NCBI GenBank assembly: GCA_013239625.1
Contig: MU056000.1
Coordinates: 1,984,001 to 2,048,000 of the forward strand
Reading direction: 5' to 3'
DNA length: 64,000 bases
From: Lama guanicoe
Taxonomy: Eukaryota
The stretch's first letter is position 1, and each line of letters opens with the position of its first letter. Of the stretch, positions 739 to 35,500 are shown piece after piece. The notes under the pieces were generated by a model. That model was not told the origin of the DNA and did not search any database. It saw only the letters and a list, made by a program, of their open reading frames with translations. The position numbers and the translations under genes were made by a program.

Positions 739-966
739 NNNNNNNNNNNNNNNNNNNNNNNNNNNNNNNNNNNNNNNNNNNNNNNNNNNNNNNNNNNNNN
801 NNNNNNNNNNNNNNNNNNNNNNNNNNNNNNNNNNNNNNNNNNNNNNNNNNNNNNNNNNNNNNNNNNNNNNNNNNNNNNNNNNNNNNNNNNNNNNNNNNNN
901 NNNNNNNNNNNNNNNNNNNNNNNNNNNNNNNNNNNNNNNNNNNNNNNNNNNNNNNNNNNNNNNNNN
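739..966. other. N-run, 228 bp
   Basis: Seen directly; flanks are unique, non-repeat sequence. Confidence 0.98.
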
Positions 967-1066
967 ATAAGATGACTCAGAATTTGCATTGTTCATTCTA
1001 ATAGATTTGCTTCCCCTCCATTGCATGGCAGGACCCATCAGATAAAGTCTCCCGGACTGTCATCAA

Positions 1067-1214
1067 NNNNNNNNNNNNNNNNNNNNNNNNNNNNNNNNNN
1101 NNNNNNNNNNNNNNNNNNNNNNNNNNNNNNNNNNNNNNNNNNNNNNNNNNNNNNNNNNNNNNNNNNNNNNNNNNNNNNNNNNNNNNNNNNNNNNNNNNNN
1201 NNNNNNNNNNNNNN
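1067..1214. other. N-run, 148 bp
   Basis: Seen directly. Confidence 0.98.
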
Positions 1215-4200
1215 GAAGTGTCATTAATGCTGTCTAACTAGAGGAGCCTCAGCTGGGAGAGTGAGCGCCTCTAAAAAAGTAATCACGGCGAGGTGCGGGA
1301 GATGGGAACCAGCGCCCGGACGCCGCGCGAGTCCTATTAGCAAACAGTTGCATTTCTCATCTGCGGTTCTTCGCAATAAAATATGGGAGCGCAAACCTCA
1401 GAAGAAGTAGTGGGACTGATATAATTTCTGTCACACACTCACCGGCGGGTCCTAAGCTAGTCCTGCTTAACGTGTTACTACCGGGGGCACCTGATATTTA
1501 ATTTGCAGATTTAAAGCTCATCTCACCGTTGGAGCCACACGGTGCAACATTCAGCGGGTACGCAAAGGTGACCGGTGCTGCACTCCCCCAGCCAAGTGGT
1601 GGGTTGAAGACGTGGAATTAAGACTGCCATTCTGCCCTTAGAGCCCTCTGCTAGTGAGATCATGCTGCCATTAATCATCACTTGGCAACCAAAACCCTCA
1701 AACAAAAAATATGCGTAAAAAGATGCAAGCAGGATGCGAACCATGCAGGCAGCCTTCCGCGCAGGACCGGTTTGCTAGGCAGTTGCCGAGCCCACGCCCA
1801 GGACGCTAAGCAGAGCTTTTGTTAATTTGAGCGGCGGGGTAGGAGGCCATCGCGCTATTTTGCAGCTAAATCGGAGAGGAACAGATGCATGGGGGAGAAA
1901 GGACAATTTTATCACATGACAGGCAGTTTCATTTGGAAACGGATGCGCCCGGGTTTTAGCTGTGCCCCAATGCCCGGGTCGCGCGCCGACTGGTGTGTTG
2001 CGCAATGGCACTTTGGCGGTGGCCTCGCTGCGTCATCGTGGTGTGCAGGACGCTGCGTCTGTGCAGAAAGTGCCCCCAGCAGATTCCACATCATAGGCAC
2101 CGGCTCTTTCCCATCTTGCTGTCGAAATAATACACTCACGTGAGATCTATCTTCACTCAATTACTGACATCATTTTGTGTCTGTAGAACAAGTAAATTAT
2201 TGTTCGGCCACTCAAGAGAGAGTAATGAAGACGGCATTCTGTAGTTTCACAGTTCACAACTTGTCACAGGTACGGCTGAGCTAATTGTCAAGCGGTTAAA
2301 CATTTATCCAGGGAGGATGATCAGGCAAGCACCCTGCGTGTGAGGGAAGCCCAGCCCAGCGCACACAAGCTTCAGCAAGCGTGAAAAGTTTGATTTGCCG
2401 CTCTGGAGATCAGACTTCACGAAGGCAGAGATGTTATTTTATCTTTCAAAAGCCAGCGCACGAATGAAACGAGGCTGGAAGCCGGTGGAAGCTGCAGACA
2501 TTTGAGGGCCACTCATTCCCGACGTCCCGAGTCCTGAGAAAGATGAAAACGCAACGACAACCACTTTGACAAGGCGGACTTTCAAAGCTTTTTCTAATTT
2601 AGTCTTTGTCCCTAAAATTCATCCATGGAAGGTACTCTTACTAATTTCCCTGAGGGAAGCCCTTCATGTGGGCGGCGTCGGGGCACTTTCATTCCTCCTG
2701 CCTTAAGGAAGAGCTCTGCTGGGCTTTCAAAGACTCAGCTAGTGTGGGGCAGATTTTGAAAATTCTAGGAATTAACTGCACAGAAGAACAACATTTTCTT
2801 TCTAATATCCTGGGATCTTCCTTCAGGTCGTTACAGGTGGAGCCGTCCTTAATGAATGCCAAGGGGACAGCTTAAAAAAGCCTTTTTGTCAGTTCCAGTA
2901 CCCCGGTCCGGGAGGGTGGAGACAGAGCAAACGCTGGAGACATTCTAACAATCACCTTCTTGGGGACCAGCTGGAGAGCAATTGGAGGGAAAACCCTCCT
3001 CATTAATCACTGAGAGGAGGTGAAAAATTAAGATGTCGATTTTGCACTGTCCACGTTTCCCCTGGACCTTTCCACTCGCCAGAGCAGACAGAGACCGGGC
3101 TCTCCAAAGACCCACGCAGGTTACAGGCGGGAAGCGCCACCCTGCCCCATGCAGTTTGCGAAGTTGCTGTAACTTGTGGGAGGTCTCAGAGGCTCACACT
3201 CAGCTCCTGCTGCAGGCGTGCTCGCTCACGGGGAGCTGGGGAGCCTGCCCCCCATTAGTCGGGGTGTCCTGCTAACGCCACCAGCGGCCAGCTTCTGTCC
3301 AGATTCGCCCCTGGATGGAGTGTACAGGCAAACACAGCCCCTCCTAGGTACCTTTGGTAATTGCTCCAAATCAGAAAGTCTTGCTCGAGTGTGAAGAGGA
3401 AACTCTGATCTCATCCCCCGTGCCACCGCCCGGGACTGGCGAGGGGACCAGGTGGAGATGGGGAGGCCCAGGCCTCACTGCCGTGCTGTCCCGAGGAGGC
3501 CCGGGCGTGTCACCAGCCGGGGACACAGGCTGTCCACCTAGGCAGCCACTGGGGATGCCGCAGGCAGCGGGCAGTGGAGCGCCTGCCCGGAGACCTTCGC
3601 CGCCTTTCCCCAGCTACTGCCTGCTGGATGCAAACAGCTGTTTCAGGCACTTCCAAGAAGACAAATGTCTTTTCAGGGTCTTTTGAGAAAATAAATCACC
3701 ATCATTTGGATAAGGCACATTTTATTAGTGACAAAAACCCATGGGTGAATTTGTTTTCTGTTTCATTAGATGCAATGTAGCCATTCAGCTGGTCACATGT
3801 AAAGTTTGAAAATAGGATTTCTAGCCCTCTGTGTTTACCTACATACGTATTTGCCGTTTCACTCCCACGTCTCAAACGAGCTTCTCCGGGGTGTTAGAAG
3901 GATCAATTACTCCTTCATTTAGGGAGACGGCGCAGCCTTTTCTTTTTCTGGCAGAAGAGAAAAAGGCTAGAAAATTGGTCAAGATCATTTGCTGCTTCAG
4001 AGGCAGCATAAACCAGCGTCTTTCTCTCGAGTGAAGGTATTTTGAACGTGCACAAAGCAGGATTCTTGCAGGCAGAGCCTGCAGAACCATCAGGACGCGA
4101 GAAGGAAGCCCAGATGCTCCTGGTCCCCAGATTTGCAGGTTCCGGGACGTAGTGTATATTTTATGAAATGATTAATGCGGACAAGGAGCTCACATTTTTT

Positions 4201-4248
4201 ACATTAACATATTTAAACATACGTAATAAATTGGGAATTCTTACAAAC

Positions 4249-4548
4249 NNNNNNNNNNNNNNNNNNNNNNNNNNNNNNNNNNNNNNNNNNNNNNNNNNNN
4301 NNNNNNNNNNNNNNNNNNNNNNNNNNNNNNNNNNNNNNNNNNNNNNNNNNNNNNNNNNNNNNNNNNNNNNNNNNNNNNNNNNNNNNNNNNNNNNNNNNNN
4401 NNNNNNNNNNNNNNNNNNNNNNNNNNNNNNNNNNNNNNNNNNNNNNNNNNNNNNNNNNNNNNNNNNNNNNNNNNNNNNNNNNNNNNNNNNNNNNNNNNNN
4501 NNNNNNNNNNNNNNNNNNNNNNNNNNNNNNNNNNNNNNNNNNNNNNNN
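4249..4548. other. N-run, 300 bp
   Basis: Seen directly. Confidence 0.98.
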
Positions 4549-4732
4549 TTTTTTTAAACTCCATATTCATGAAAAGCGGACTTGTAATTTGATAAAGGGG
4601 AGCTTGTGTTCCCGTTTCCATTCAAACGGCATCGCGGAGCAGAATTAAAGTAGGCATCTGTGTTCTCCGGCATTAATCTCCTCAAGCACATCCCAGCTGC
4701 TCTGATGTGCAGGAGGAAGATAAGTCCTGCAC

Positions 4733-4952
4733 NNNNNNNNNNNNNNNNNNNNNNNNNNNNNNNNNNNNNNNNNNNNNNNNNNNNNNNNNNNNNNNNNNNN
4801 NNNNNNNNNNNNNNNNNNNNNNNNNNNNNNNNNNNNNNNNNNNNNNNNNNNNNNNNNNNNNNNNNNNNNNNNNNNNNNNNNNNNNNNNNNNNNNNNNNNN
4901 NNNNNNNNNNNNNNNNNNNNNNNNNNNNNNNNNNNNNNNNNNNNNNNNNNNN
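4733..4952. other. N-run, 220 bp
   Basis: Seen directly. Confidence 0.98.
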
Positions 4953-5067
4953 GGAGCAGCCATCACCATTTGAATTGAGGTATTCAGTAGCACATGAATA
5001 TGAACAAATGGCAAACATAAATCTCTTGCATGAAGTACACCTTCTATCCTTTTATTATGGAACAATT

Positions 5068-5399
5068 NNNNNNNNNNNNNNNNNNNNNNNNNNNNNNNNN
5101 NNNNNNNNNNNNNNNNNNNNNNNNNNNNNNNNNNNNNNNNNNNNNNNNNNNNNNNNNNNNNNNNNNNNNNNNNNNNNNNNNNNNNNNNNNNNNNNNNNNN
5201 NNNNNNNNNNNNNNNNNNNNNNNNNNNNNNNNNNNNNNNNNNNNNNNNNNNNNNNNNNNNNNNNNNNNNNNNNNNNNNNNNNNNNNNNNNNNNNNNNNNN
5301 NNNNNNNNNNNNNNNNNNNNNNNNNNNNNNNNNNNNNNNNNNNNNNNNNNNNNNNNNNNNNNNNNNNNNNNNNNNNNNNNNNNNNNNNNNNNNNNNNNN
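5068..5399. other. N-run, 332 bp
   Basis: Seen directly. Confidence 0.98.
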
Positions 5400-6899
5400 C
5401 ATGTTTGTGTTTATTGAAATAGATTTAATGGTATTATGAGTGATGATACACTTAACCAAGGCTATATTTATAAATTCCTGTCAAACTTTTATTTTCTTCC
5501 CTCTGCTTGCGCTTAGAGGATTGATCTGAGGTTGTGCTGTCTCTCCTGTGTCCGCCACGGGCAGAGCCACGGACGGTGCGCACAGGGGCTTTGTTATTTA
5601 CGCATTGTCTACTGGGCCAGGGTAGCCCGGACCCACCCACCCAGGCCCCTGATATTCTTAAAACAAAAAATAAACAAACAGAAAATAAAAGCTTAACTTC
5701 ACTGGACGCATCAGCCTGGGCGGTAGTTTACACTGAGGACCTGTGTTCTGTAACGATCGGAGTGTTTACTCTGCTCCTTCTCCAAAATGGCCTTGACGTT
5801 GCCAACAACCACTGCACCAGAAGCAACAATGACCGGAGGGGGAGGGGCTCCTTTGCACCAGTCTTTCTGGTGCCACCTTGCAACTTCCCATGGCATCTCT
5901 GCCTGCGCCCAGCGCGCTGGGATCCTGCAGCTGGCCGCACGGGGCCACACGCGGACACATCAGAGGGGCGAGCGGAAGGTGGACACCCCCAGGCTTATCA
6001 CAGAGGATGTGAAGCAACTCGGAATCTTTTCTGAGGCTGGAAAGCCAAGTCCAACTCTAGAAAGAAAATTGTTCTTCGCAGACGAAGAGAGAAAATGCTT
6101 CCTGAAGGGCTGGGTGCTGTGAGTACCTAGCAGAGAAGACAAAGACTGTAAAAAGTTAGAAGAACAAGCCCGTCACTTTATCCTCAAGATTGTCAGGCCG
6201 TAGACAGGTCACGCATTACCCCACTTTTCTCTGTCCCCCTAATACTGAAAGTCGTGCAGTTCGAGTGTCGACAGCACACGCCGGGTCATTACCTGATACA
6301 AGCGCGTGCCACTCGTTTCAGGCTCATGAAAGAGAGACTGTCTGCACCTTCCATAAAGTCTACCAGAACGGTTTGAGCATAATAGGTGTTCAGTTAACCC
6401 TGTATAATGAACAGGCAGATAAACACGGCCCTGAGTGTCTTCATTTCTAGAGGGGTGTAGAGGGACAGTCACTCGTGTGCCCCAAAGCCTGCTGATGTTA
6501 ATTTTTTTATGCTCCAATGTGTAATTCCTGGTTTTCCAGGATTAGGGTGGCTGAGACAGTGAGGAGAAGAAACCAAACACACAAGGGAAAGATCCCTGAT
6601 CTCAGAGCAAACTACCAGAAATACATTTCCTTATTAACTTGCTCTGAATCTGTTTATTTGCCAGACATATTTTCAGTTACCTCTTTGTTATCCACCTCCC
6701 ACACACAAAAAAATCCAGTGTTTTGTGTGGACGGAGAAATGTTGCAGTTATTAGCACAATCTCTGCCTTTTTTTCTAATCACTATTATGTATATGGTCTA
6801 CAAGAACGGAGGGAGGTGGGGCCTGGTAAATCCTCCTCTAATAAGAAAAATGTCTGACTTCGTGAAACCAGATACTTAGTTCTGAGCCCCGAAACAAGC

Positions 6900-7900
6900 T
6901 GAAAGCATAGACTCTTAGGGAATACTGTTTAAAAATCACAGGTAGATTAAAATCACACGCACAGCCTTGCATATTGGGATTTTAATGTTCATTATTGCAT
7001 TCATTATATGATTTAAATGAGATTACAGAGTAAAATATGCTGTACTTTGTGATTTAACAACAATATTTAAATACTCTGTAAGTCTTTTAAATTATTCTTT
7101 GATAAAATTGCAACTTACTCATTTCAACACACAGTCTGTATTGAGTCTTAAAGCTATATAAAGCTTGTATAAATATATGGTTTTGCTTTAAGCACATCTT
7201 GACGCAAAAGGGATTCGAATCCTTTTGACTGGATTGAAAATGATGTAGGTGGCGGGGCTGAGAAAAGCCACTGGTGGCGACCAAATTAAGTGAGCTTGCC
7301 CTCCGGGGTTTTCCTGACAGACTGGCCCCACCGGGCAGGTCCCGGGGGAGACGTTCCCAGATATCTCAAAGGTACCTAGAATTTCTACTTTGAAAGAGCA
7401 ACCTTTTCTCTCTGTATCTGGGGCCTACGTAAAGCTGCCCTTGAATGTCAGGAGATGTGTCCGGTATACTTTCTTGGAATAAAAATAATTGACTTTTTTT
7501 TTAACCAAACTCAGTATTTGAAAGCATTTGATGCCACAGTAGCCCAGTTTCTTGTTTACTTTCCCTTTAAAACACACTTTTTCCCTCTATGTGCTGCTCA
7601 TCCCTGGACAGATGAAATTGATTTCAATTTATCCTAACAATTTTTTATGACTCTACTGAAATTCCGTCATCGTGCTGGCATTGGAAGAAAGAGGGTTCGA
7701 AGGTTAAGCCCGTCAGTGCAATTTCTGTGTTAGCATGTTTCCAAGATAATTATTGGACTCCTTCTATGTACAGACCCGTTCAGCGTTGGGCTGGCTGACG
7801 ACGGATTTGATTGTGACCACTGGGCAAAATTTATTAAGAGTTCCTAGTGTTTGTAAACAATCCAAATATAAGATCTTTCACTTCAAATGGCTCATTTTTT
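6900..7900. promoter_or_regulatory. AT-rich unique island, possible conserved non-coding element(s)
   Basis: Dense TAAT/ATTA/TGATTTA motifs and no repeat that I recognise. Confidence 0.35.
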
Positions 7901-8000
7901 TCCCTCCAGGGTCAAAGTAGATAGAGGGGTAGAAAGGGGAAGAGAAGAGAGAGGGGATACACTTAAACATAAGAAAGGAAATTAAGGAAACACTTAAGCA

Positions 8001-8136
8001 GGGGAGGGTATAGCTCAGTGGCGGAGTGTGCACTTAGCATGCCCGAGGTCCTGGGTTCAATCCCAGGTACCTCCACTAAAAAATAAACCTAATTACCTCT
8101 CCTCCCCCAAAAAAAGAAATAAAAAGAATAAGAAAG
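8001..8136 (+). mobile_element. tRNA-Ala-derived SINE, camelid vic-1 type
   Basis: GGGGAGGGTATAGCTCAGTGG..TTAGCATG..GGTCCTGGGTTCAATCCC..ACCTCCA is a tRNA-Ala(AGC)-like head, with A box at 8011-8021 and B box at 8054-8063. It is followed by an AAACCTAATTACCTC..CCCC body and an A-rich tail. Confidence 0.9.
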
Positions 8137-8866
8137 AATACACATACAGAAGTATATTATGTATGAGCAAGCGTGTTGAGTTTACATGCGTTAAGAAGCC
8201 ACTTAAACACCAGGAAGGAAAATCAGTTTGCTCAGGTCAGTTTTGATGACTGTTTTCATTCGATTCTGGAATTTTAGTTTTTATTTGATTTCGAAGTTGG
8301 TGAGCGTTGTTCCTTCTAAGTCTAAGGACTTTGCACCTTACAGAAAATTTGAAAGTCAAAATGGGAAACAAAAAAAACCACCAGTAGAATCGGAGACAGT
8401 GGAGGAAAAGCACAGTTCTCAGAAGAAGTGGCCTGCGTGTGTGGCCGTGCCCGCAGCTCTGCGCCCTCCACAGGCCCCCGGCACACCTCGCCCTCGAGCC
8501 CTCGGCTCCGTGCCCAGACCCCCGGACGCCAAGCCCAGTTTCCGTTCTCCTGCTGTCTCCTGCAAACTTCCAGCCGGCGCTGGGCCCGTGGTGCCACCTC
8601 GGGGGCTCAGGTGGCCCTCAGCTTATGCTCCCCCGACCGCGCCTGCATCTCTGAACAGCCCCTCGTCCGTTCTGCTCCGTGTGAGCCCTCCTGTTGTTGC
8701 TCCCCAGGCACTGACACAGATTGCACTCTTAAAATAGCATTTACTGTCCTGTTCACTGCTGGAGGAATAAGCTGCTCTCTGCAGAAAGTAATAAAACAAG
8801 GAGAAGGAAGCGAAGGAAATGAAGACCACCCGTAGTCCCCAAGTCAGGAGCAAGCCGGCTGGCGTT

Positions 8867-9004
8867 CACACGCATGCATGTGTGCTGAGGACAGCCACAT
8901 GCGTGCACAGCTCCGTATGCGTGTGCTATGACGTGCTGTGATGCAGACACACATGACACGCACGGTTCCATTAGCACGTGCGTGTGTGTGGGCGTGTCCG
9001 CATG
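8867..9004. repeat. Degenerate (CA/TG)-like alternating purine-pyrimidine tract
   Basis: CACACGCATGCATGTGTG...GCACGTGCGTGTGTGTG. Confidence 0.65.
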
Positions 9005-9014
9005 GCTTTAGTTC

Positions 9015-9123
9015 TGGACGGGGGAGGAAGCGTCCCTTGTCCTGATCTGTATCTCACGTAGCACCAGGCACAGTGACGTGTGCTCATGGCGTCCTCTCCA
9101 CAGATAGCTGTTGAGTAAATGAA
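9015..9123 (+). mobile_element. LINE-2 3' end fragment
   Basis: TGTATCTC..GCACCAGGCACAGTG..TGTTGAGTAAATGAA resembles the L2 3' terminus. Confidence 0.55.
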
Positions 9124-11143
9124 AAAATAAAAGCAGATTTTAAATTTTCCTTTGTTTTTTTTTCTCACGCAGTGACTTAGCAAGTGCCTGAAAATAAAAA
9201 GTGCAGTCACTTGGTGCGCGCAATGCCGAGTGACTGATCTGATTAGTGTTCCCAGGGAACGTACCCACCTCCTGACTGAGTGCGCTGGCTTCCCTTTGCA
9301 AGCTCCCCTCGCGGCTGCGTGAGCCCGTGTGCAGGCCTGGGAAGGACGGAGCCCCCTCTGTCTGCGTCCGCAACAGAAGGTTTCATTCCTTCCGCGGCTC
9401 ATCACAGGCGAAACTGCTCCCAAGGTTTTAAATATGACGCCACGACTGCAAACAACGGTGTGGAAGATTATATTTGGTTAATTTTCTAACCAGCCCTTGA
9501 CCCCATCAGTAGCTGTTCTCTCGTACCCGGATGAGGACAGCAGGGTGCGCTGGCCTTTAAAACGTGCGCACCCAGTGTCGCCAGGCCCCCGCACAGGCTC
9601 CTGCGGAATGTGTTTTCATTACTTAAAATGAAGGAAGACTCGCCTTAGCAAAATTGTCACTGGCACAGCCGTCACGTGAGTGTCCCTTCTGGTTTTACTG
9701 GTGGGCGCCGTGGCCAGTGCAATTCACCGCAGCAATCAGGGGCTCGGGGCTGGGAGGCGGGGCGGCCTGGCCTTGTCCGTGCCAGGGTCCTCCTCCCGCG
9801 GGGGAGAGGGTGCGGGGCCCTGCTTCCGTTACTGTCTTAGGTACTGATGAGATGTTAGAAACAGGGCTGAAATAATTGGATGTGACCTTTGTGGTTTTCT
9901 CCACCCGGGAGCAAACTTGGAGGGAAGCTGGGAGGGTGACTGACATGGGCGGCCGCTCCCGGACAGCTCGGGCCTCGGGCAAGCGGCTGCCTCCCTAAAA
10001 TAAAAGCGTGCTTTCTGCTCATTAGGAAGGAAATTCAGCCGCACGCACGCTGCGCCTAGCTGCGCCTCCAGACCACCCTCACTGGGCTCCACACCCCGCC
10101 CCGGCGGGCCCCCAGAGTGAGCGCTTCGCTGCAAGGTGAGAGAGCAGAAGTCTCGGCTCGTATGTGACTTTGAGCTGCGGGACAGTGCCGTTTCCTTCAA
10201 CTGCAGAAACGTTTCTTGTAGACGTAAGAAGGAGGAGAATTTTTAAAGTTGGTTTAGTTTAGTCACATCGTTCCGAGAGCAATCTCTTTCCCACCGCTGG
10301 GTGGGGGTGGGGGGCGTCGAGTGCGACTTTGCTTCGCTTCCAGCAGGACAGACCTCGACCCGAGCCTGTCTACTTAGAGGGGACTTAGAACCGAGGGAGG
10401 ACAGTGCCTTTTCCAGAAATAACGGTGCATTTATGCTGATGCTGGTAATTCTTGACCAGAGCTTTTCTGCAGTGAAAGCCAGGTTACTAATGGGCTGAAA
10501 GTACACTTCATTAAGCTTCACTGAAGATGGCAGAAGGGAGCAGAGTCTGGGAGGAGAGCCTGGCCTGGGCCGTCTCCGGTCCTGGTGGCTCTGGGCTTTC
10601 TTCCTGAGGCTGTGGGGCTGCCGGGGACCTTCCACCGTCCCGTCCTCCTCTGCCCTCGTTCCCAGAGGCAAGCAGCAAGGGGAGCCGGCTCAGCGGACTC
10701 CACGCCCGGGGGAAGCCTTCCTGGAGGACCAGTGATACCACGATTCATTCCCAGAAACTCCTGAGGCATGGCAGGCGTGAGAACACGGTGTTAAACGTGG
10801 AAACTTTCATTTCATCTCATTAAGGGGGGCATGGACTGAGTACAGATGGCAAAAGTGAAATACAGCAAAAATGGCTGCTCCACGTGGCCTGCGTCCATCA
10901 CAAGGGCAAGTATTGAAGGAAGCGCCTTCCAGAAGTACCCTGCCATAGTGGCTGGTTTAAGTGACCCTGTGGAAACACAGGAGCCGGCTTCCAGGGGACA
11001 CGGCTGTCATTACCTGCATGCAGGGGACCTGACTACCGCCGACTTCGCAGTGCGGGTGCCAGCTCTAAGCTGGCAATTTACGTTTCCAAACAGCTGCAGT
11101 GCTCAACTCTGCAGTCCTGCAAATAGATTTGCTTTCTCTAAAA

Positions 11144-11288
11144 AGGGTAATCACTCAGTATCTTGTAATAACCTGTAATGGAAAAGACTCTGAAAAGGAA
11201 TACACGTATGTGCATGTGTATGTAGAACTGAATCACTTTGCTGTGCACCTGAAGCTAATGCAGTGCTACAAACCAACTGGACTTCAGC
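11144..11288 (+). mobile_element. L1 3' UTR end (cetartiodactyl type), 5' truncated
   Basis: CTCAGTATCTTGTAATAACCTGTAATGGAAAAGA..AACTGAATCACTTTGCTGTGCACCTGAA; the same motif recurs at 13076, 50373 and 51081. Confidence 0.85.
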
Positions 11289-11293
11289 TGGGA

Positions 11294-11470
11294 GGGGAGA
11301 GCGGAGCTCAGCAGCAGAGCGCGTGCTGAGCTCGCACAAGATCCTGGGCTCAATCCCAGGTCCCTTCACTAGAAAACAAACAGATGAGCCTAAACTTAAA
11401 CCTAAGTACCTCCCCCTAAAAATACAAAAAAGGATAATAATTTTAAAAAGTAAAGATTGAATTTAAAAAA
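11294..11470 (+). mobile_element. tRNA-Ala-derived SINE (vic-1 type), diverged, inserted at the L1 3' end
   Basis: GGGGAGAGCGGAGCTCAGCAGCAGAGCGCGTGCTGAGC..TCCTGGGCTCAATCCCAGG..AAACCTAAGTACCTCCCC aligns by eye with the 8001 copy. Confidence 0.85.
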
Positions 11471-13075
11471 TACTCCAATTTTTTAAAAAGCATAATCAAA
11501 TAAAAGTAATAAAATTGACATTTAAAGTCAATGCACGTGTGAAGCCACACCCGCAGGTGAGAGTGTGTGTCCCTGCCCCAGACCTGCAGCCCGGGTGCCT
11601 GGGGGGGGGTCCTGATCGCCAGGCTTTTCCCTACAGGCAGGGTGGTCGCTAAGGCTGTCGCTGTTGCCTTCGGGGCTCCCCCGACTCTGGTCCCAGATGC
11701 TGGCGGGGGTCCCGGGGCTCGGCCCGGGTGAATGCAGGATGGCGGGGCTGGACCAGGAGGCTCGCCCTGCGGACCCGCACAGCGCCCTCTGCCGGGCCTC
11801 CCGCCGGGGCGGCCTCCTGTCTCCGCACCAGTGTCCTGTCAGGCTTCACTGGAAACCGAAGATCAAAGCTCACTTACACTATGAGCGAACAGGTCTCTCA
11901 AGTCCAGGAGCCTCTGTTTATTATTTCAAGAAAACGGAGCTAATTTCTTGAAAGCCAGGGGGCCAGGTGCCGCCTCCCTTCCCGGGATGAGCCGTGCGGT
12001 TTTGTGCGACAGGCCGGCGCTTGTCCTTTGGAAACCGGAGTGTTGAGGGTGCAGCCACACTGATGTCTTTGTAAAGGTGATACATGCGGTCTGTCTGTCA
12101 GACAAATACCCCAACAAGTACAGTGTTTATCAAATTACCTTGAAACGCGCAGGTCGGAGGGCCCTCGCAGCCAGACGTGGGAAGACTCGCTTTGCCTCTT
12201 TCACACAGAAATCGCTTAATGATAGTTAATATCGCCCTGTAATCTCAGCAGCTCCCATTTAATTGCAACTTTTTGAAGTCTGTCTGCACCCCTGGAGGAC
12301 GGCGGATCCCTGTCTTAAGCACGATTCAGGTGGTCCCGGCTCCCAGGGAGGCAGGGACAGAGGAGCTCGGTCACCTGCGGGAGCGCTCCAGTCCATCCTG
12401 GTCCGGGGCCCTGCCCACTCTCCCCAGCGCGGGGGAGACCGCACCTTGGGGAAGGCCTCGAAAGGGGCATGGGGCTGCTGCACCCCCAGAAAGGATTTTT
12501 CTTTTTAAACCAAAATCTCAGCTTTCGGGAAAAAAAACAAAACACGAAAGTCAGCACGGGCTTGCTTGGAAATGCCAGTGCGATGCTCTGAACGCCTCCA
12601 GGCCCTGCCCTGTGGGAGGGCCGGCTGTAAGGCGAGCGCCGGCTGGCCTGTCCCGGGGGGTTCAGATGTTTCCTTTAACTAGAAGGGTCATCCTGGGAGG
12701 CAGCGAGCCCTTCTCCCCGCGCTGACCTCACCTCTGTCCCTAGGACGGAGGGGCTGGGGCCGCACCCCGACTCACCCAGGCTGGGTGTCCCTCCTGGGCT
12801 GCGGACATCAACACGTGAAGAGAAACTCCTGATTTAAGCATTATTTCAGAACGTCTTCTCTATTTGATGACACAGAAGCAGACTTAATGGCACGTAATTA
12901 TTCAAAATACATGGATAAGGGTTGAACTGAACTTTTCCAACCAAACCCATAAAACCACCTACCGATTAAGACTCACCTTTACAGCTGAGCCTTTCTCTAA
13001 ATTTCATAGATTGATTTCATATTCATTTTTCCATGTGGTTCAAATACACTGCAATGTGGGTCTATGAACATCTGT

Positions 13076-13300
13076 TGGGGTTAGCAGACACACACTACTG
13101 TACATAAAGCAGATATACAACAAGGACCCGCGGCAGAGCACAGGGAGCTACATTCAGTTTCTTATAATAACGTATCATGGAAAAGAACCTGAAAAGAAAA
13201 AGCATCTATGTATGTAGATGTATAACTGGATCACTTTGCTGTGCACCTGAGACTAACGTAAATCAACTGCACTTCAATAAAAGATAAAATTAAAAAAGAA
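13076..13300 (+). mobile_element. L1 3' UTR end (cetartiodactyl type)
   Basis: AACAAGGACC..AGCACAGGGAGCTACATTCAGT..ATCACTTTGCTGTGCACCTGA..CTTCAATAAAA followed by an A-rich tail. Confidence 0.88.
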
Positions 13301-15997: not shown

Positions 15998-16129
15998 NNN
16001 NNNNNNNNNNNNNNNNNNNNNNNNNNNNNNNNNNNNNNNNNNNNNNNNNNNNNNNNNNNNNNNNNNNNNNNNNNNNNNNNNNNNNNNNNNNNNNNNNNNN
16101 NNNNNNNNNNNNNNNNNNNNNNNNNNNNN
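15998..16129. other. N-run, 132 bp
   Basis: Seen directly. Confidence 0.98.
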
Positions 16130-16510
16130 CTATTCGGTGCTTCTGGTTCAAATCAGGTTATTCTCTTTGGTCACAGGAAATAGGCCTTCTTAGCAATAGG
16201 TATGTGACATTATGGAACGCTTGTACAGAGAGATGTTTAACCATCACTTTTTTATGAGTATGATTTTGATTACAATAGAGCGTCAACCATGAGACAAGAA
16301 ATGCTAAGTTGCATTGGAAGTGGCTTCTATTATATGAGTGACACGGCGAAGAAGTAAAATCAGGGAAAAACATTACATCTTTATAAAAGCTCATGGATTT
16401 GGGGTGGGGATTGAATTTTTAAATAATTATGGTTTTGGAAGCAAAACATTTTCTAAAACCTACACGATGCAATTTAATTCTAATACATTGATTTAAAATC
16501 GCCCATATTA

Positions 16511-16547
16511 TGATTTATGTATGACGTCATACAATAAATGGCTGTCA
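16511..16547. promoter_or_regulatory. Composite site: Pbx-Hox TGATTTAT, full CRE (ATGACGTCAT), CAATAAA and Meis CTGTCA
   Basis: TGATTTATGTATGACGTCATACAATAAATGGCTGTCA, containing a 16-bp perfect palindrome at 16518-16533. Confidence 0.5.
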
Positions 16548-19420: not shown

Positions 19421-19439
19421 CCCTCCACGCCCCTGGCAC

Positions 19440-21020: not shown

Positions 21021-21213
21021 TTTCTTTTTTTTTTTTTCATTAAAAACTTTCCGTTGTGTTTTCCTGAGGCGCGGTCAGTCACGGCATTGTGCCAGCTTCC
21101 GGTGCACAGCGTCGTGGCTCGGTCATCCACGTGCACACGTGGATTTCTCTCCATGTTCTCTTCCTTGTAAGTCACCACAAGACATTGAATATAGCTCCCT
21201 GTGCTACACAGTA
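21021..21213 (-). mobile_element. L1 3' UTR end, antisense, strongly GC-shifted
   Basis: A poly-T tract, then GGTGCACAGC..ACAAGACATTGAATATAGCTCCCTGTGCTACACAGTA, the reverse complement of the L1 motif at 51081. Confidence 0.85.
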
Positions 21214-24200: not shown

Positions 24201-25230
24201 GCACTTGCACCCCGAGATCCGGGAGGTCTCCTGGTTGGACGGACCCCAGCTGTGCAGCCGATCGTCCCCCAGACTCCACTCCGGGCATCGCTGGTGGTCA
24301 AGGTGTCCTCATCGTTGACACGTCATCCATCAGCATTTATCATGTGACCCGATTTTGTCATTTTAAATAAACTCTGACTCAGAAGGGCCCGGGTTAAGCC
24401 AGGTAAGTAGATGCACTCTGGGAGTGTTGGGCTGGGGGAAGAATCCGGCTGTTTGAATTTCACTTTTTTTTTTAGTTTTCCTTAGTTTTATTAGCAGGAA
24501 CACAGAGAGGAAACTGGCTCTGTTCCCCCTTCTTTTTCTGCGATGCTGTTTAGGACCCTGGGATGCTTTCTTCCAGCTATAAAACCATTTCACCCAGGTG
24601 CGCTCATCTTCAGAGTGCACCCCTGCTATCTCAGACCTCTGGAGCTCCCGCTGATTCTGCGCGGGGGCAGAGCACTGGGCTTGTGACGCTCTGAGCAGGG
24701 GAGAGGAGCAGTCAGCGTCTGACCTCCAGGGCCCTGGAACCCCGTTGGGGACAAGGAGGCAGGCGCACAGGCGTCTCTGAGGCAAAGAGGAAGGAAAGGA
24801 CCCCCGTGAGGGTCAGATGCGCAGGGTTTGCGGTCTGAGGACTCGGCAGGGTTTGCTTCTGATGGAAAGTCAAATGGGTGGAAACTGAAGGGTGAAGGCC
24901 TGGGCCTCCAGTTTGAATCTGTGTGTGGCCCACCTGGAGGGCTTCACGCACACGACTGCCCGGGAGACGCCGCCCGCCCAGCCCCGTCTCTGCTTCAGGG
25001 GGTCCGAGTGAGGCTGGAGAATTGGCCCTTTTAGTGAGTTCTAGGTGACCTGATGCTTTGAGGACCCTGGGTTAACGGGGTGTCGCTGGTGACACGGCCG
25101 TCCCAGTGCTCCTTTCTGACACTTTCAGGGCTGAGCTCGAGGGTGGTGCTGGTTCCTGCTGGGGGAGGCTGGCGGGTCTTCCTGTCCAGACGACTGGCCA
25201 CTCCTGCAGTGCCCATCTGTGGGGACCCCA

Positions 25231-25254
25231 GGGGTCGGGGCGGGGTGAGAGGGG
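25231..25254 (+). other. G-quadruplex motif
   Basis: GGGG-TC-GGGG-C-GGGG-TGAGA-GGGG. Confidence 0.55.
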
Positions 25255-25827
25255 AGGCAGGGTCTCGGCAGACGGGACCTGCTGGTGACCCGCTGATACT
25301 CGGGCCCCCCCACGTCCTCTCCCCACGCCAGCTTTAGGGGGAGCGGCAGTGAGGTGTCTGGTCCAAGCCGAGGAAGGCGGCTGGGCCCCGGTGACGCTCT
25401 CCTGAGCCTCTCGACCTGGGCTCCTGGGAACAGCTCTTCCCCAGCCCCGGCAATGGGAGGGGAAGAGCAGCAGGCTGTCCCCCACTGTGTCTTGCAGAAA
25501 ATTGGCTGGAATGGAAGCTTGGTCTCCCAGGACGCGCCTTGCAGGCTGGCCAGCAGGGTGACCGTCACAGCGTCCGGCTTGTGGTTTCACAGCTCCCTTC
25601 TCCGGGGGCCGCGGAGCTCCAAGCTCCTCACCCTTTTCTGTTTCTTTTTTGCTCCTTGATGTCACTGTGAGAGCAAAGTGGGGACCAAGTCCTACGCAGG
25701 GCTGAGAAAGACTGGTAGCCTCTGACACCCGGCCCCTCCAGCCAAGCTCCTGATGGGCGCCCAGCCCAAGCTCTCTGGCCAAGTGGGAATGTTGGAGGCC
25801 TTGAGGGGAGATACTGATCGGAGCTAC

Positions 25828-26012
25828 CATGTGTGTGCACGTATGCCCGTGGGTGTAGGGGTGCGTGCACGTGCATGTGAATGTGTATGCGCGTTCATGC
25901 ATGTAGGTGTGTGTCCTTGGGTGTGGGTGAATGTGTGCAGGGAATGTGTATGTGAGTGTGTGCACATGTGCATCCAGCTGTAGATGTGTTCAGAGAGTGT
26001 GTGTGGGTGTGC
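25828..26012. repeat. Degenerate (TG)n / RY-alternating tract
   Basis: GTGTGTGCACGTATG..GTGCGTGCACGTGCATGTG..; it explains the His/Thr-rich start of ORF 25072-25965. Confidence 0.8.
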
Positions 26013-27698
26013 AGCTAATGCTGCCATCTGGGCTCCGGAGAGCTGGGAAGGGCACTGGCCCAGGCCAAGTGGAGTGGAAGAGACAGTCTCCGGGCAGATG
26101 GCCCAGGAGGGGTCGCGGCCCAGGGCGGGGTGGGTAGAGAAGCTGCAGAAGCGTGTGTCAGGGGTCTACCGGGCACGGTGCTCCCCCAGGAGACGCTGCC
26201 GCGCCACGCCAGGCTGCTCTCAGGGCATGCTGTCATGCAGCCAGGACCCTGAAGGCCACCATGAATGGGCGTGGGGTGTGATAAACGCCGACTGCGGAGG
26301 CTGGCGTGAGGGCCTGGAAGCCCAGCGCACAGGGCCCGGGGACAGCGGAGGGACAGTGGCAAGCAGGGCAGGACGGCCCGGGGGCCCGCGAGGGCCCTGC
26401 CCCGCAGACACACAGCATGGAGCAGGGCATCCGAGAGCCCCAGCGGCACCGGCGCAGCGTCACAGTCCCTGACTCAGGTTCTCAAGCACAAGCTGATTTG
26501 AGGCCCGGAATGTGCTGCCTGAAGGAGACGCTGTGTCTCCAGAGGGGACCGTGACACCTTGTGGTGAGCGCACCCCACAGTGACTCCCCGAGGCCTTCCT
26601 GGAGGAGCCTGCAGAGCTTTGGGATGACTGCACATGGAGGGAAGGGAAACCCAGGCACCTTGGGGACTCCCGTCACAGGGCCTGAGGGGCCGCTGACAGC
26701 ATCACCATGGTCCTGTGAGAGTGGAGGCCTGGAGGGGGCCTCTCCTTAACACGGAGCCGAGTCAGGGTCAGCGCACAGACGCCGTGGGTGCCGCGGCCCT
26801 GTCCAGCGGGAGGTCCCTGGCCCCGGGGACGTAACTGGACGCGCATCCCTGGTAGCAGGTAGAACCCACACGGGCTCCTCAGTCTGTACCGTGTGCGCTC
26901 TCGGTGGGGAAGGCCACGAGGATGCCCAGACCCAGCGGGGATAGCAAATCCAAACAGCGCAGCAAACCCGGTGAGCTGGGGGCTGGCAGAGTGACTGTCC
27001 CCTTCAAAGCAGGGTATGTGGAGGTGATGGGCCCATCTTGTCCCCGGTCATTTCGAAGTCTGGCTTCCACAAAGACCAGGCGATCCCAGAGGACCCCGGG
27101 AACTCAACTGGGGGGAGCCGAGACGCCGTGGCCACAGCAGACGTGGTGTCGTTGCTAAAGCAGATTAAGGCGGATTCGGACACTGGGCATCTGGCCGCTG
27201 ACCCGCAAAGGCATTACTTTGCATCCTCACGATAAAGAAGCAGCAAGGCCGGTCGCGTCACGTGAAGGGGAACCATGGCACATTCTTGGTCTTGCCCCCA
27301 GGGTGGGGCTGCGCTCAGCGTCTGTTATGAGACAGCGACGAGGCCAGGGCCATCAGGTCGCTTTGTAGACGCGGGCCCTCTGTCAGTGACATCCCGTGAA
27401 TAAGAGAGGCCGTCACGATGGAGCGAGAACACTGAAGGCTGGGGTAGGACAGCTGGGCCTTGGAGGGCGGGAGGTCAGGCGAAGCCAGGTCAAGAGCTGG
27501 CCCCCCTCGGCAGGTGCCGCAGGGTCTGGCTGCGCGGGGCGCGCGGGGGCGTTGCCTCGGAGTGAAGACGTCAGTTCCTCCGACCTCCCGTTGTTGAGGA
27601 CGCGGCGCGGGGCCCAGTGGGCCTCCTCACCTTCGAGGTCCACACCAGGGGGGCTTTTCGGACTCACTCATGGTGCGTCTCACAGGCTGTCAGCACGA

Positions 27699-27720
27699 GG
27701 GGCTCAGGGGAGGGGAGGGG
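27699..27720 (+). other. G-quadruplex motif
   Basis: GGGG-CTCA-GGGG-A-GGGG-A-GGGG. Confidence 0.55.
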
Positions 27721-29939
27721 CCAGGCTGTAGTCTGGGCTGTGGAAGGTGCCTCTGGGGGGGTGACACCTCGGGCGCTGGTGTCTACACCCAGTAGGAGAA
27801 TCTCATCTCAGGCTCCAGGACTCTAGAACCCCCTGCCTTCTACCACAGACCCTGGAAGCAGCTTTGGGGTTTCGGGGTGCCGTTGGGCCCTGGGGCCCTG
27901 AGGCCAGAGCTGCCCGTGGGCTGTGCCCCACCAGACCCGATGGCTGACCTGTGTGGCAGGCCCGGCCGGCATCTGTGGTGAGACGGAAGTGGTGTGGGGG
28001 TGGTGGGTGCAGCCTGGGTCTTAGAACATCAGTAGGTTGCAAGGCGGGTGGCTCAGACCCCGTGTCTCCATCATTGATGCCTCAGAACCTCTCCCCAGCT
28101 CAGACCTGCCTGGCTCCCGCGGGTCCCTGAGGGAGGCTGGTGGGGAGGAGCGGCCGAGGCTGGTCCATGATGGGTTGGCTCGCACATGTGCGTGAGAGCC
28201 GGAAGGACCACAGCGGCCTGCTGCGCCCGCAGGAGTGGCCCTGGAGGCCAGGGGTGAGGGGACGTCCTCCCGATGGGCAGGGTCTCAGGAGACATACCTG
28301 GTTCTCTGGTGTGTGTGGAAACTAAGCGGCCTGGCCCTGACATGAGAACATACGTGGACCCTGGGCCGTGGCTGGTCAGCCCGGGACGGGCGGGGGAGAT
28401 ACTGGAAGAGCAGATGCAAGAGACCTGGGGCAGAAGTGCACGGATGAGCCTGCAGGACTGGGACCAAACTGGGAAGGACCCATGTTTCATGCTAAGGTCT
28501 CCCCGAGGACACCCCCCCCCCGAGGAGAGGCAGTGAGTGTTCAAATAAACGGGACTGACCTCGCTGTGGGTGCTCAGAGGAACAGAAGAGCCGTGGGGAG
28601 GGGTGGAGGCTCAGCGTGGCCCTGGGAGCCTGGCCCCAGTCAATCTCGCCCTCGCTGCCCCGGAGAAGCTTTGGGCTGCTCACAGTGGAAGACCAGCCAG
28701 CTGGGGAAAAGTGGGGGCTGCCCCAGGGGAGCTGGGAGTCACCTGTCAGCACCCAGTGGACCCCTGGGGCGCCTTTCTTAGCTCTGAGACTGAACTCGAC
28801 TCCACGTGGACCATCCTGCCATCACAGGTGGAGAAGAGCCCTGCCCCAGAAGACGAGACCTCTCGGGATGGGGCCGGCGTCTACCCACCAGGGAGGTCAC
28901 CAGGCTTGCAGCCGAGGGCTGAACAGGTGGGAGACGGAGGTGCAGGGAGCAGGTGAGCTCATGGTCCATGCCGGGGGCAGGGTCCAGGCCCAGGGACTGG
29001 GCTGGTAGCCATGGAGCCGGGCTGCCCTCCACACCTCGTGCCTGTCCAGTCTCCGCCCATCACGCCTGCAGCATCCTCGCCAGAGATGCCCATTTCAATG
29101 GAAACCTGATGCTGGAATTGCGCTCAGGAGGCCCCCGTGCTTTCATCGCCTGTGGGATGCACGAGGGGCCCTTAGCAGGCACCCCAAGGCCCTCACGGTG
29201 CCCTGGCCGCCCTCGAGCCCCCAGCTCTCCATCTCCACCTGATGTGTGACAGGTGACAGGTGACTGGTGGGCCCTACCCCTCTTGGCCAAATGCGTCTCA
29301 CCTGCTGCTCTCCTGGAACGCCCCTCCCATCACACACCTGGATGATGTGCTGCTGGACCTCTCCAGTGTGTGTGTGCGTGTGACTCCAGGTGTGCCCCAG
29401 AATCGCCTGTCTCTGAGCTGCCCGCCCCAGACTCGGGCCTCGGGCAGCCTTGCTGGCTTCTCCGCTCGGCACCTCCAGGACTGGCACGCAAGTTGCCTGA
29501 GACAGACTTGTGGACTTTAATCGAATGGCCAACAAACGGTTACAGCACAAGACAGCCCAGCGCAGGTGCCCTGCAGTGATGGAGAAGGCTCTGGAGTTCT
29601 GGGAGACAGAAGTCAAGTCTAGGACATTTGCAGCCTCGTGGGGGAGGCGGAGGAGGGCCCGTTGGCTGGAGAGGACTGTGGCCGGAGGGCCTGGGGCGAG
29701 GGAGCTTCAGAGGGAGTGGATGCCACGAGGGGAGATTTGGAGCGAATACAAGGCAGAACCAGACCTGCATCCAGGCAGGTGCCCCTCCCTGCTGGCACCC
29801 GCCCCAGACCCCCTCTGCCTCCTGGTTCCCTTGACCTCCGCGAGCACACGGGCCCCAGGAGGGCTGGAGCCGGTTTCCCAGAGGCTGGCGCTGCCGGCAC
29901 CGAGCCCGGCTGCCCCCCGAAGTCCCTTCCGGCACCAGC

Positions 29940-30112
29940 TCTCCCTGAGCAGCACTCACGGCCCTCACCATGCGGCACCTGGGACCCTCAGTGAGCTTTC
30001 TTATCCCGAAAAGGCAGCCCTCCCCACCTCCCTCAGGGACGTGAAGTCCCGAGCGGTCAGATGCTGAGTGCGCGGCTCAGACCGCGGGAAATACCGATAA
30101 ACGGCAACTACT
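29940..30112 (+). mobile_element. MIR SINE core and 3' part, GC-eroded
   Basis: CCTCAG..TTTCTTATC..AAAAGG..CCTCCCTCAGGG..GTGA..ATAAACGGCAACTACT follows the MIR consensus order. Confidence 0.5.
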
Positions 30113-33100
30113 TTCTGCTAACATTAGAAACGCTGGCTTCAAGGGCGACCTGTGACAAACTGCAACTCAGGGGCGACTGATCTGAGCAATAGACAGGCTA
30201 CCAGAACCTGCGGCCTTTCAGCTCTTGGCAACAGCAGCCTGGACAGGAAGACACAGCTGTCGGGGGACAGGGCTCCGGGAAAGTGAGCGATGGAGCCGCT
30301 CACCGCGGCTGGGGTCGACTTCTCTGGCTGGGAATCGTCTCAAGCCGCTGGCCTCGCTGGCTTTGCCCGGCCCCCAGAAGCAGGCACAGGAGCCAGGGGG
30401 CGGTCTCTGCGGGGGTCCCGCCGTCTGGAGGCAGGGGGTGCTGGCGACGGTTTGGGCAGCCCACGTGCGGGTGGCACCCAGAAGTGCCGGGGGGGCGGAC
30501 GGTGCCCGGAAGCCCCGCCTGGCGCTGGCGGCACGGGATGAGCGTGGTTTGTGGCCTGCAACCCTGTGAAGCCCTGTTCGAAGGTAGTTAGTGAAATGAA
30601 GTGCTGAAGGTTATCTGGCTGACTTGGGACGTCTAATGGCCAGTTGAGACAATTCAAACCTGTAAGGGAAATTTAGGTCCTTAATTACATTGCATCACTT
30701 TGCCTCTCAGTCCACATCATTGTCAATTCTGTTTTCCCACTGCAGGCGTGGGAGCACGGTGGCACCACAACACAGGCCAAATTTAAATAGAAGCTTTATA
30801 TTCTGAGGTTTTTTCCCCCCTGTTCTTATTTTTAGGAAAGTGAAGAGGAAAGATTCGTTTCAAAACTGGTGGCTTCACGACACCGTTTTGAGGGACTATT
30901 CCATGTCCCCAATCCCCAGAACAACTGCCATGGGAAGCACGCCCAGAATGGGCGCCCACAGCGGGGCCAGCTGGTCCGGGCTGAGGACGGTCATGGAAGG
31001 CTTCTCGGGGGAAGCGGCATCTCCACAGCAGCATAGAGAATAGGTTTTATGGACAGAAACCCACTTAGGGTAAGAGAGCTCAGTTAGAACCCCATCACCC
31101 CCGCCTCTTGTTGAAATGGAAGAGAAGGCCTTTGACAGGCGAGGACATTCTCAGGTCTCCAACTCTTTTCTTGCTTTTGAGAGCGACGGCCGTCGGTTGG
31201 GGCTTCTGGATTAGCAGGAGACATTCATGTTTCCAGCACAGGCAGGCACTCAGGAAAAGGACAGACACCCTTTACACCAAGTCCAAAGGTTTGGGGACAT
31301 GGTTCCCGAGCTTCTGAAGACAAACCTGAGATGAGCGGGGCCCCGCCTGTGGCTCGCCAGGCTCCCCGAGGGGGCAGGGGCAGGTGCACCGACAGGACCC
31401 GCCCCACGGCGCCAGGAGAAGGGCTCTCAGGGGCCGAGGGGTTGTTCGGTGAACCATTCTGCTCAGAGTCCCATCTGCCAGCCTCTGTGCTCCCCCCGAC
31501 GTGAAGCGTGGACCCTGGAGTAGCAGCGGGTGCCCGTGCGAATCTGCGTGGAGGGCGCCTGAGGCCGTGAACGTCGGGTGACTGGTTTCTCTTGTTAACT
31601 GTTGTGGGAACTTCAGGGACCACACCTGGTGACACGGGAGTCTCGGCCACACTGGCTGGGAGAGGGCGGGGCAGGTCAAGGGCCAGGAGGCTGGTGCTCT
31701 TGGGGATGCAGCCACGGATCCCTTGGCTGGAGGCACCACTCGCTTCCCCGTCTTCCTCCTTTCCCCCCAGGAGATACTGGGGTGGCACAGCCAGAGAGCT
31801 GCTGTCCTCAGCGACCTCAAAGTAAGTGGAGTGGGCAGAGACGTCTAATCAGGTCATTATGCCTAGCAAGATGCCGTGTCCAGAGAGGGACCAGCTTGCC
31901 TTCTTGCAACAAATACGCATCACACCGTGACCCGTGCCAGGAGAGGGCTGCCTGACAGCTTTCCATCCCCCATCCTCTTGCCCTCTGGCCTTGGCCCTTC
32001 TCCACGGTGTCCTCTCCTCTCCCAGATCTGTCCTCTCTCTCCCCATGCAAGGCAGGTCTTCCTTGACAATCACCGTCTCTCCACACACTGAAAGACGTGG
32101 GAGAAACCGACCTGAGTGTGCAGCTTCATGGACAAGCGCAGGATGGCTCCCTGCGCTGTCTTCCGAGCGACTGTAAGTGGATGCGGTGTCCACCTGTACT
32201 CACCGTGCACCTCTTTGCTGAGTGCAGAGAGGAGCCCTGAGCTGTCAGCCTCCCAGGCTCTCACACAGTCGCTCTTCCCACCAGGATGTACTCTGTGTAT
32301 TTTAAAACACGTCCGTGGGGGTTCTTGTACTTTTATGTGTCTGTGCTGTTCGTTGTGTCCAAACTGATGATGAAATCCAAATGATGAAAAGTACGTGATT
32401 TTCTCGACGCCAGGAGCAAGGCGGTGAGTCCAGGCTGGCAAGCCGGGCACGAGCGCCTCCGCAGTGGGAGCGGCTGGCTCTGCGGCTCGGCTAGCTGAGC
32501 GCGAGGGCAGCATGTGCCCGGAGCCGGCCCGCGTGCAGGTCTGTCCTTTTAACTCTCAAACCTTCTTGCTGGGAACACCAAGCACCGCATTGCGGCAGCT
32601 CGCACAGCCTGCAGGAGAGGGCGGTTTCAGGCTCAGCGAGCCTTTGCGTGAGTCCTGGGGGAAGCGTGTGTCCTCGCCCCAGGTTGCCGTGAGAACCAGT
32701 GAGCCGAGGCATCCGAGGCCCCGGTGCGGTGCTCGGCACGTGGCACGGCGCACGCTCAGCGAGTGGCCCAGACGGTCACGACGTAACTGACTGCCGTGGC
32801 CGGGGTACAGGGTCCTGGCCAGACCCCCTTTGCCAGCCGTCAGCCCCCCTGGAGCACATCCTAAGAGCCAGGTGCCCCTTGGATGCTGTGGATCCAAAAG
32901 TAAGCAGGGTACGCTTCTTGCTCCAACGCTCACCCTCTGGCGAGGTCCTGCCACGGAGAGATGACGGTGCGGCCCAGGGCCTTGCCGGGACGTGAGCGTC
33001 ACTTCTTCTGCAAGAAACTTCGTGAATGGCTGAGCCCCTCCTTCTGCCTGGGCGCCCCTTCCATCGCTCGCCCGAAACCCCAGTGTCAAGATCCCAGGGT

Positions 33101-33949
33101 ATGGGACCCCTCCTGTCACCCACGTCCCAGGCAGGACCACAGGGACACGGTGTCCTGGGGAGCTGCCACACTGGATTATATCCAAAGCTTTCAAAGTGTT
33201 AGTTTTTGTTGTGTTTCTCCTTGAGGGTGTCCAGGTTGGCAGGATGGAGAACAGGGATGGAACCTCTGACCAAGGAGGCTCCCGGGCACCTCTCCATCTT
33301 CAAAACCACGCAGGGCTGGGCCGGCAGCAGCAGAGTGAGGGAGGGAGCCCTGGCACCTCCTGTGTGTCCTCCCAGGAGCCCACGAGGCTCCCTGCATGCA
33401 CGTGTCTAGGAGCTGTCCTACAGCCACAGGCTACCCCCCGTGGGTTCGGGTCTTTCTCCAGGAATGGATGCACGAGTGCAGGACGGAGCCGGGCGGCAGG
33501 GGCAGGTCTCACCTTTCACAGGAGTGAGATGCTTGCACAGCTGGGGGAGCTGAGCTCAGAGCATCACCAGCTGCTTCTCTTCCCACCTCTGTCTGGGACA
33601 GAGCTTTCCCAGGGCTCAAACCTGCAGGTGGCTTCCTGACCTGACCACCTCGATTCTGGCCCATGTGGACAGCACCCGGGCTGCTCCCACGCATCCTGGC
33701 ACAGCTAGCGTCCAGAGGAAGGACACTTCCCCAGCCTCTAGAGAGTGTGAGCGTGGACAGCTCCCTGGCAGAAAGCGGGCGTCTCGCTGACCCGGGGTCT
33801 GCTGGCCGTAAGCTCTGACCTGCACGCCATGGCCAGGGGGCTTCAGCATCCGTCGGGCCCCAGCCCAGATTGGGGAGGGCTGGGACCAGTTGCAAGATGG
33901 AAGCTGATGACAGTGGTGGGCAGTTCGGGAAGACATCGCCGTGGCCTCC

Positions 33950-35500
33950 TTCACTGTCGGGTTTTCGCCTTAGAAATCCATCCACAGAAGCAGCATTGCG
34001 CGTGCAGCCAGGAGCGGAGCAGAGGAATTTCACAGTAAACATGCCTTTTCCTTTTCAAGGAGCCCGATGCATCATGACCCGCTCGGAATTCAACGCCGCC
34101 ATACTCTGCTTCAACATTAGATGACATCATCGTAGACACTTCATGCTGTTTTTGTCTGTGGTTCCGAACTACATCTGCTTAATCAATCCCATTATGCATT
34201 CGGCGTCCACGACACATCAAAGGCTGGTAACGCTTTTTTTCAAACTTCGCTTGCTTAAAATGATTTCCCTCCAGATCAAGATGCAGAGCACAAAATATTA
34301 ATCAGTTTAAATAAATATCAAGACTACCCAAATAATATGAATAATTGGCGCAGAATAGCTCCTACTGCCCAGTTCTCAACAGCTGGTCACGCTGGCGCGG
34401 GGCACCCCCTCAGCAGCCTTTTAGATAATGACTTTGGCATCTGTCGATGAGCACTTGCTACTGCCCACAGAATTTACAACTCACAAGTGGGAAGCAGGGG
34501 CTCCGATAGAACTTTTTTATGCAGGGTCTTTGAAATTTATTAATGTAATGCAAACACAAGCCTTCCAACCCATTAAATTGTTGATGTTATGCGAATCCAC
34601 CCTGGAATGGCAGGNNNNNNNNNNNNNNNNNNNNNNNNNNNNNNNNNNNNNNNNNNNNNNNNNNNNNNNNNNNNNNNNNNNNNNNNNNNNNNNNNNNNNN
34701 NNNNNNNNNNNNNNNNNNNNNNNNNNNNNNNNNNNNNNNNNNNNNNNNNNNNNNNNNNNNNNNNNNNNNNNNNNNNNNNNNNNNNNNNNNNNNNNNNNNN
34801 NNNNNNNNNNNNNNNNNNNNNNNNNNNNNNNNNNNNNNNNNNNNNNNNNNNNNNNNNNNNNNNNNNNNNNNNNNNNNNNNNNNNNNNNNNNNNNNNNNNN
34901 NNNNNNNNNNNNNNNNNNNNNNNNNNNNNNNNNNNNNNNNNNNNNNNNNNNNNNNNNNNNNNCAGAGGCCTCTGTTAGTTCTCTCCTTCATTTACAGAAT
35001 ATACTCAATGTTATTTTAATCTTCCTACAACGCTTCCATGCATAGGCAATGATGAGCCATCCCCAGCGAGTCACGGCGCGGCTCCACTTTGCACAACTGA
35101 TAAACATTTAAATAAGCCTTTTCAAAAAAGAATAGCTCGTAAAATTATTAACCCGTTGATGGAGTCCGTCGCTGCTCAGTAGTTCTTCTTTCCTGAAAAT
35201 AGGTCAGTCATAAAGTGCGTTGGACTCGGCGCCGTAGAGCCCTCTCATCCCTGAGCCCCACCATGATTAGCAGGCGTTATCCAGGATCATGAGTCCACTC
35301 GTGTGCAGCCCCGAGCCCTTAAGGTGCGTGATTAAAAACGGTGTGGGCTCTCTATGCTAAGTGCGCATGCTTTGCGAGCCAGGAGGAGAAAGGAACACTG
35401 TACACCACTGGGCCTTGTAATAAATGACGACCTCATTCCAAAGCAGCTCGCATTCCAGGGGAGCGAAAGTAAAACATTGCATTCCACTAGCCACACATTT
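33950..35500. promoter_or_regulatory. Putative conserved non-coding element cluster 4
   Basis: Unique AT-rich island with a consensus TCF/LEF site ACATCAAAGG (34214-34223), forkhead GTAAACA (34035), many TAAT cores and the longest N-run. Confidence 0.55.
34615..34962. other. N-run, 348 bp
   Basis: Seen directly; followed immediately by the 12-bp palindrome CAGAGGCCTCTG. Confidence 0.98.

Follow-up and report, generated by a model that had tools for sequence, protein, structure and literature searches.

An IrxA-type cluster around the window

The window, i.e. the whole stretch of 64,000 bases (64 kb) that was analysed, corresponds to positions 1,984,001-2,048,000 of contig C6652 and has a GC content of 53.7%. 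A search of the genome for the TALE homeobox family PF05920 returned 27 matches, the best seven of which include three on this contig and three on contig C2129. The homeoboxes of C6652 are located at 1.057 Mb (-), 1.705 Mb (-) and 2.271 Mb (+), the first two sharing a strand and the last being divergent from them, and the translations of these three exons are Iroquois-type homeodomains. FTO_NTD was matched three times, always on C2129, while zf-CHCC displayed a single match, at 0.993 Mb on C6652, beside the 1.057-Mb homeobox. We take NDUFS6 to be the neighbour of IRX4 and FTO to be that of IRX3. Because of this gene order, of the zf-CHCC match near the first homeobox and of the restriction of FTO to C2129, C6652 was recognized as the contig that holds the IrxA-type cluster (IRX4-IRX2-IRX1), and not the FTO-linked IrxB.

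As for individual genes, an Atlas search with the 1.705-Mb exon gave as best cluster one named IRX-2 (score 0.95), with an IRX6-named cluster at 0.94. A PDB sequence search retrieved TALE homeodomains, with no IRX entry among its 24 matches. The homeoboxes on either side of the 1.705-Mb exon are presumably those of IRX1 and IRX4, as judged from the order of the cluster and from general knowledge of it. The window occupies 49-61% of the 566-kb interval between two of these Iroquois homeoboxes:

1..64000, no strand: whole window, apparently non-coding middle of the stretch between the IRX2-like and IRX1-like homeoboxes

The runs of N described below (N-runs) are thus likely situated in a desert between IRX2 and IRX1. 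An EBF-type desert was also considered as the locus and was rejected, none of 20 COE1_DBD matches being on the contig of the window. A hidden coding gene was discarded as well: none of the 14 longest N-free frames displayed a Pfam match (frames of at least 200 codons; 14 out of 203, the remaining 189, including those spanning N, being left out). The only Rfam match reaching the gathering score was tRNA-like and was found at positions 8004-8075, 2.6 kb from the nearest N-run; it belongs to a multi-copy SINE, of which it forms the tRNA-like head, and an RNA gene in the window was rejected.

Seven N-runs and their surroundings

The window contains a total of 1,708 N, distributed over seven runs in four clusters:

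739..966, no strand: N-run of 228 bases, cluster 1
1067..1214, no strand: N-run of 148 bases, cluster 1
4249..4548, no strand: N-run of 300 bases, cluster 2
4733..4952, no strand: N-run of 220 bases, cluster 2
5068..5399, no strand: N-run of 332 bases, cluster 2
15998..16129, no strand: N-run of 132 bases, cluster 3
34615..34962, no strand: N-run of 348 bases, cluster 4

Each of the seven lengths given in the original prediction was recovered exactly upon recounting. One pattern had been missed there: all seven are of the form 8n+4, that is, odd multiples of 4. The chance that seven lengths fall in the same residue class modulo 8 is (1/8)^6, or ~4e-6, for a pattern that was spotted post hoc. 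Inside clusters 1 and 2, neighbouring N-runs are separated by spacers of 100, 184 and 115 bases.

The DNA flanking the N-runs had been described as AT-rich, and this is confirmed here beyond chance. Flanks of 100 bases displayed a GC fraction of 0.393, against 0.540 +/- 0.038 under random placement, and values as low were reached in 2 out of 10,000 placements. When flanks were counted as four clusters, the corresponding fractions were 0.384 and 0.541 (as low in 8 out of 10,000). GC rises with distance from the clusters, from 0.38 within 100 bases to 0.45-0.48 up to 500 bases and 0.55-0.59 further out. The motifs TAAT/ATTA were encountered 34 times in the eight outer 200-base flanks, versus 15.7 +/- 5.0 in GC-matched tiles, where 67 out of 20,000 draws reached 34. 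The placement of the N-runs is therefore non-random relative to the visible flanks, and because of this the rule by which they were placed likely depends on sequence content; a filter for human likeness would fit such a rule, which is a guess.

These AT-rich, TAAT-enriched surroundings with GC rising outwards resemble conserved non-coding elements, in agreement with what had been proposed for the visible sequence. Four islands were delimited around the clusters:

251..1300 (approximate), no strand: AT-/TAAT-rich island of cluster 1, candidate conserved non-coding element (composition and locus only); the part called by rule is 251-1050
4001..5600 (approximate), no strand: AT-/TAAT-rich island of cluster 2, putative conserved non-coding element; called parts are 4001-4950 and 5251-5600
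15651..16800, no strand: AT-/TAAT-rich island of cluster 3, putative conserved non-coding element
33951..35150, no strand: AT-/TAAT-rich island of cluster 4, putative conserved non-coding element

Judged from their composition and the locus together, these islands likely belong to the enhancer-type conserved elements of the desert between IRX2 and IRX1.

The original prediction had also stressed that no N-run falls in a repeat. This holds true for the visible flanks: the nearest of 47 tandem-repeat rows was found 262 bases from an N-run, and the nearest multi-copy stretches lie 2.35-13.4 kb away. It is nevertheless uninformative. Only 968 bases of the window were multi-copy when compared by blastn with 215 kb of neighbouring DNA; a random stretch of 250 bases touches such DNA 3.8% of the time, and no contact for any of seven runs is expected 76% of the time. 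Since these repeats are so sparse in the window, their avoidance carries no weight and was discarded as evidence on the N-runs. For each cluster, a single visible flank was used as query against its own genome, and all four returned the self match only, which by itself is no proof of rarity. In this loose first look, a weak one, none of the four flanks displayed a paralogous IrxB copy.

Origin of the N-runs

According to the description of the data, N had been substituted for parts of the window, one N per letter, by the time of the first reading; these parts are not listed there. An N that stems from this preparation does not represent an assembly gap and is uninformative about the letters it covers; inside the window, native gaps are indistinguishable from it. 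A background was obtained from 20 neighbouring loci of 10 kb, covering 100 kb on either side of the window. These 200 kb contained a single N-run, against seven in the 64-kb window (binomial 3e-4 by runs, 0.014 by clusters). By a single island rule, N was present in four of the 14 AT/TAAT islands of the window and in none of 40 in the neighbouring 200 kb (Fisher p 0.003). Examples of N-free islands in the window are those at 6.3-7.35, 39.4-40.8 and 54.0-55.4 kb. Both comparisons yield p values that are too low, because the window was picked for its N-runs and the thresholds for islands were set after the flanks had been seen. Islands were moreover defined by composition, which includes AT-rich repeat tails, and the neighbouring ones may be less conserved than those of the middle of the desert, a counterpoint to the contrast between 0/40 and 4/14.

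Taken together, the statement on data preparation, the 8n+4 lengths, the excess of N in the window and the N-free neighbouring islands argue that the seven N-runs are very probably masks written while the window was prepared, and not features of the genome, sited in likely enhancer-type islands of the IRX2-IRX1 desert. Window preparation would have replaced these stretches by N, letter for letter, ahead of the first reading; all seven would go back to a single machine origin, with a placement rule that would depend on sequence content. A minority of them, one or two, could nevertheless be true assembly gaps.

That all of them are true gaps of estimated size, fallen in AT-rich islands by accident, is highly improbable. 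The assembly is fragmented, with 55,231 contigs, and further N-runs do occur on the same contig, as such an origin would have it. Two were found in 215 kb outside the window, of 13 N and 196 N. The shorter is located within a tract of 73-81% GC and the longer inside a GC-rich tandem array with a period of 20 bases; both look like ordinary gaps, their setting being GC-extreme or tandem-repeat DNA in two cases out of two, versus none out of seven in the window. Estimated gap sizes, besides, would not all be 8n+4. Among the outside runs, this form is also displayed by that of 196 bases (chance 1 in 8) and not by that of 13 bases; the former may be a mask instead of a gap, or the native gap sizes of this assembly may share 8n+4, the background for gap lengths being as small as these two N-runs. 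The spacers inside clusters 1 and 2 speak against gaps as well, since spacers of only 100-184 bases are unusual between scaffold gaps.

The original prediction held that the N-runs were hard-masked and not real gaps, and ascribed the masking to the deposited assembly, from which a human-contamination filter would have taken those enhancer cores that are most conserved. Of this, the first part probably stands; the second very probably does not, as the description of the data places the masking in window preparation. A filter of this kind would agree with the enrichment of the flanks in AT and TAAT, which exceeds chance, and with their position in a desert where conserved elements are known, and the available portion of PMC5017631 indicates that ultraconserved sequence can pass for human contamination and supplies BED files for masking. 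The same portion, however, states that likeness alone is insufficient to call contamination and presents a method designed to spare true conservation. The replaced stretches are, in addition, ascribed to window preparation, none of the 40 comparable islands across 200 kb of the same desert carries N, and the three homeobox exons of contig C6652 are all free of N. An assembly-level filter is therefore extremely improbable, and the accompanying claim, that conserved cores had been removed from the public assembly and would cause false calls of lost elements, found no support. A literature search on contamination filters that delete conserved elements from assemblies returned no report and was too thin to claim that there is none. 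Masks of window preparation that mark conserved enhancer cores, of an already catalogued kind, are far likelier than the assembly-level filter and were given about an even chance or better.

The N-runs as such hold no new biology, and the surrounding desert is already described as enhancer-rich. Had the assembly been filtered as proposed, this would be a systematic blind spot of comparative genomics, faking losses of ultraconserved elements. For windows prepared like this one, the lesson is a practical one: inserted N-runs can be taken for findings by first-stage readers and, in regulatory deserts of vertebrates, masks can land on the very islands most worth reading. Since they can both cover the most interesting islands and mislead readers, calls of a lost element or of a gap should therefore not rest on N in a prepared window.

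Comparison with known systems

Hard-masking as a step of data preparation, for instance by bedtools maskfasta with BED files of human likeness (as in the available portion of PMC5017631), shares with the present N-runs the letter-for-letter use of N, the preserved coordinates and a placement that likely depends on content. It differs in being applied to public assemblies, whereas masking would have been carried out here on a prepared window and under an undisclosed rule.

Conserved non-coding elements of vertebrates are described, in the part of PMC5728398 consulted, as AT-rich and enriched in TAATTA, with an AT content that drops at their borders. The islands of the window are likewise AT-rich and TAAT-enriched, with higher GC outside, and are clustered near a gene for a developmental transcription factor. 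Such elements are defined by identity across species, whereas the islands of the window are known from composition and position.

Iroquois deserts have reportedly been the subject of a functional survey by de la Calle-Mustienes et al. in 2005. In excerpts of PMC13696352 and PMC4889666, the IRX1-IRX2 interval is presented as a gene desert in which enhancers and conserved elements abound. Its length amounts, in the former, to about 497 kb for chicken, 665 kb for mouse and 844 kb for human. The latter reports numerous conserved elements in the surroundings of IRX1, IRX2 and IRX4. The stretch considered here resembles this desert in lying between two Iroquois homeoboxes of a three-gene cluster, 566 kb apart, and in that a protein-coding signal was not found. 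It differs in that its islands are unmatched to any named enhancer and are recognized here by their composition and position. Going by published work on this locus in human, mouse and chicken, AT-rich islands rich in homeodomain motifs and scattered in a GC-rich background, such as these, would act on the flanking IRX genes as long-range enhancers.

N-runs beyond the window

The 200 kb beside the window (20 loci of 10 kb, 100 kb on each side) contained a single N-run, located in locus L006, and its length also fitted the 8n+4 pattern common to the seven N-runs of the window. Another, much shorter run was found near the IRX2-like homeobox and is probably a native gap.

L006:3564-4089, GC-rich array of tandem 20-base repeats, broken by the 196-base N-run
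L002 (G000:C6652:1702501-1707500), run of 13 N, surrounded by sequence with 73-81% GC

AT-rich islands and repeats

Three AT- and TAAT-rich islands of the window, recognized by composition, were devoid of N and readable over their full length; they constitute candidate conserved elements. None had multi-copy matches in the neighbouring loci.

6301-7350, island without N
39351-40800, island without N
54001-55400, island without N; over 54.0-55.35 kb, GC was 0.38 and TAAT/ATTA reached 20 per kb, a density as high as in the N-run flanks

The 10 kb immediately upstream of the window (L013) displayed the highest AT- and TAAT-richness of the 20 neighbouring loci (GC 0.395; TAAT/ATTA 15.7 per kb) and contained no N.

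Repeats in the window included tRNA-derived SINE copies and related AT-rich repeat tails, probably of the camelid SINE and LINE-1 3' end types, as well as two short tandem arrays.

8000-8138 (with an Rfam tRNA match at 8004-8075), 11152-11381, 13075-13301, 50372-50475 and 51085-51247, SINE copies and related tails
18181-18297, degenerate CT-rich short tandem array (6/12-base repeat)
59565-59654, 24-base minisatellite (3.8 copies)

Known elements of the desert

Known elements were placed by linear interpolation between the two flanking homeoboxes, a very rough projection of position only. The chicken rumplessness enhancer EnhRp (described in PMC13696352) would thereby fall near locus L004, upstream of the window by very roughly 97 kb. 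The conserved region in mid-desert that harbours human variant rs117273909 (according to PMC4889666) would, equally roughly, lie near 10 kb of the window, i.e. within its first 10-20 kb.
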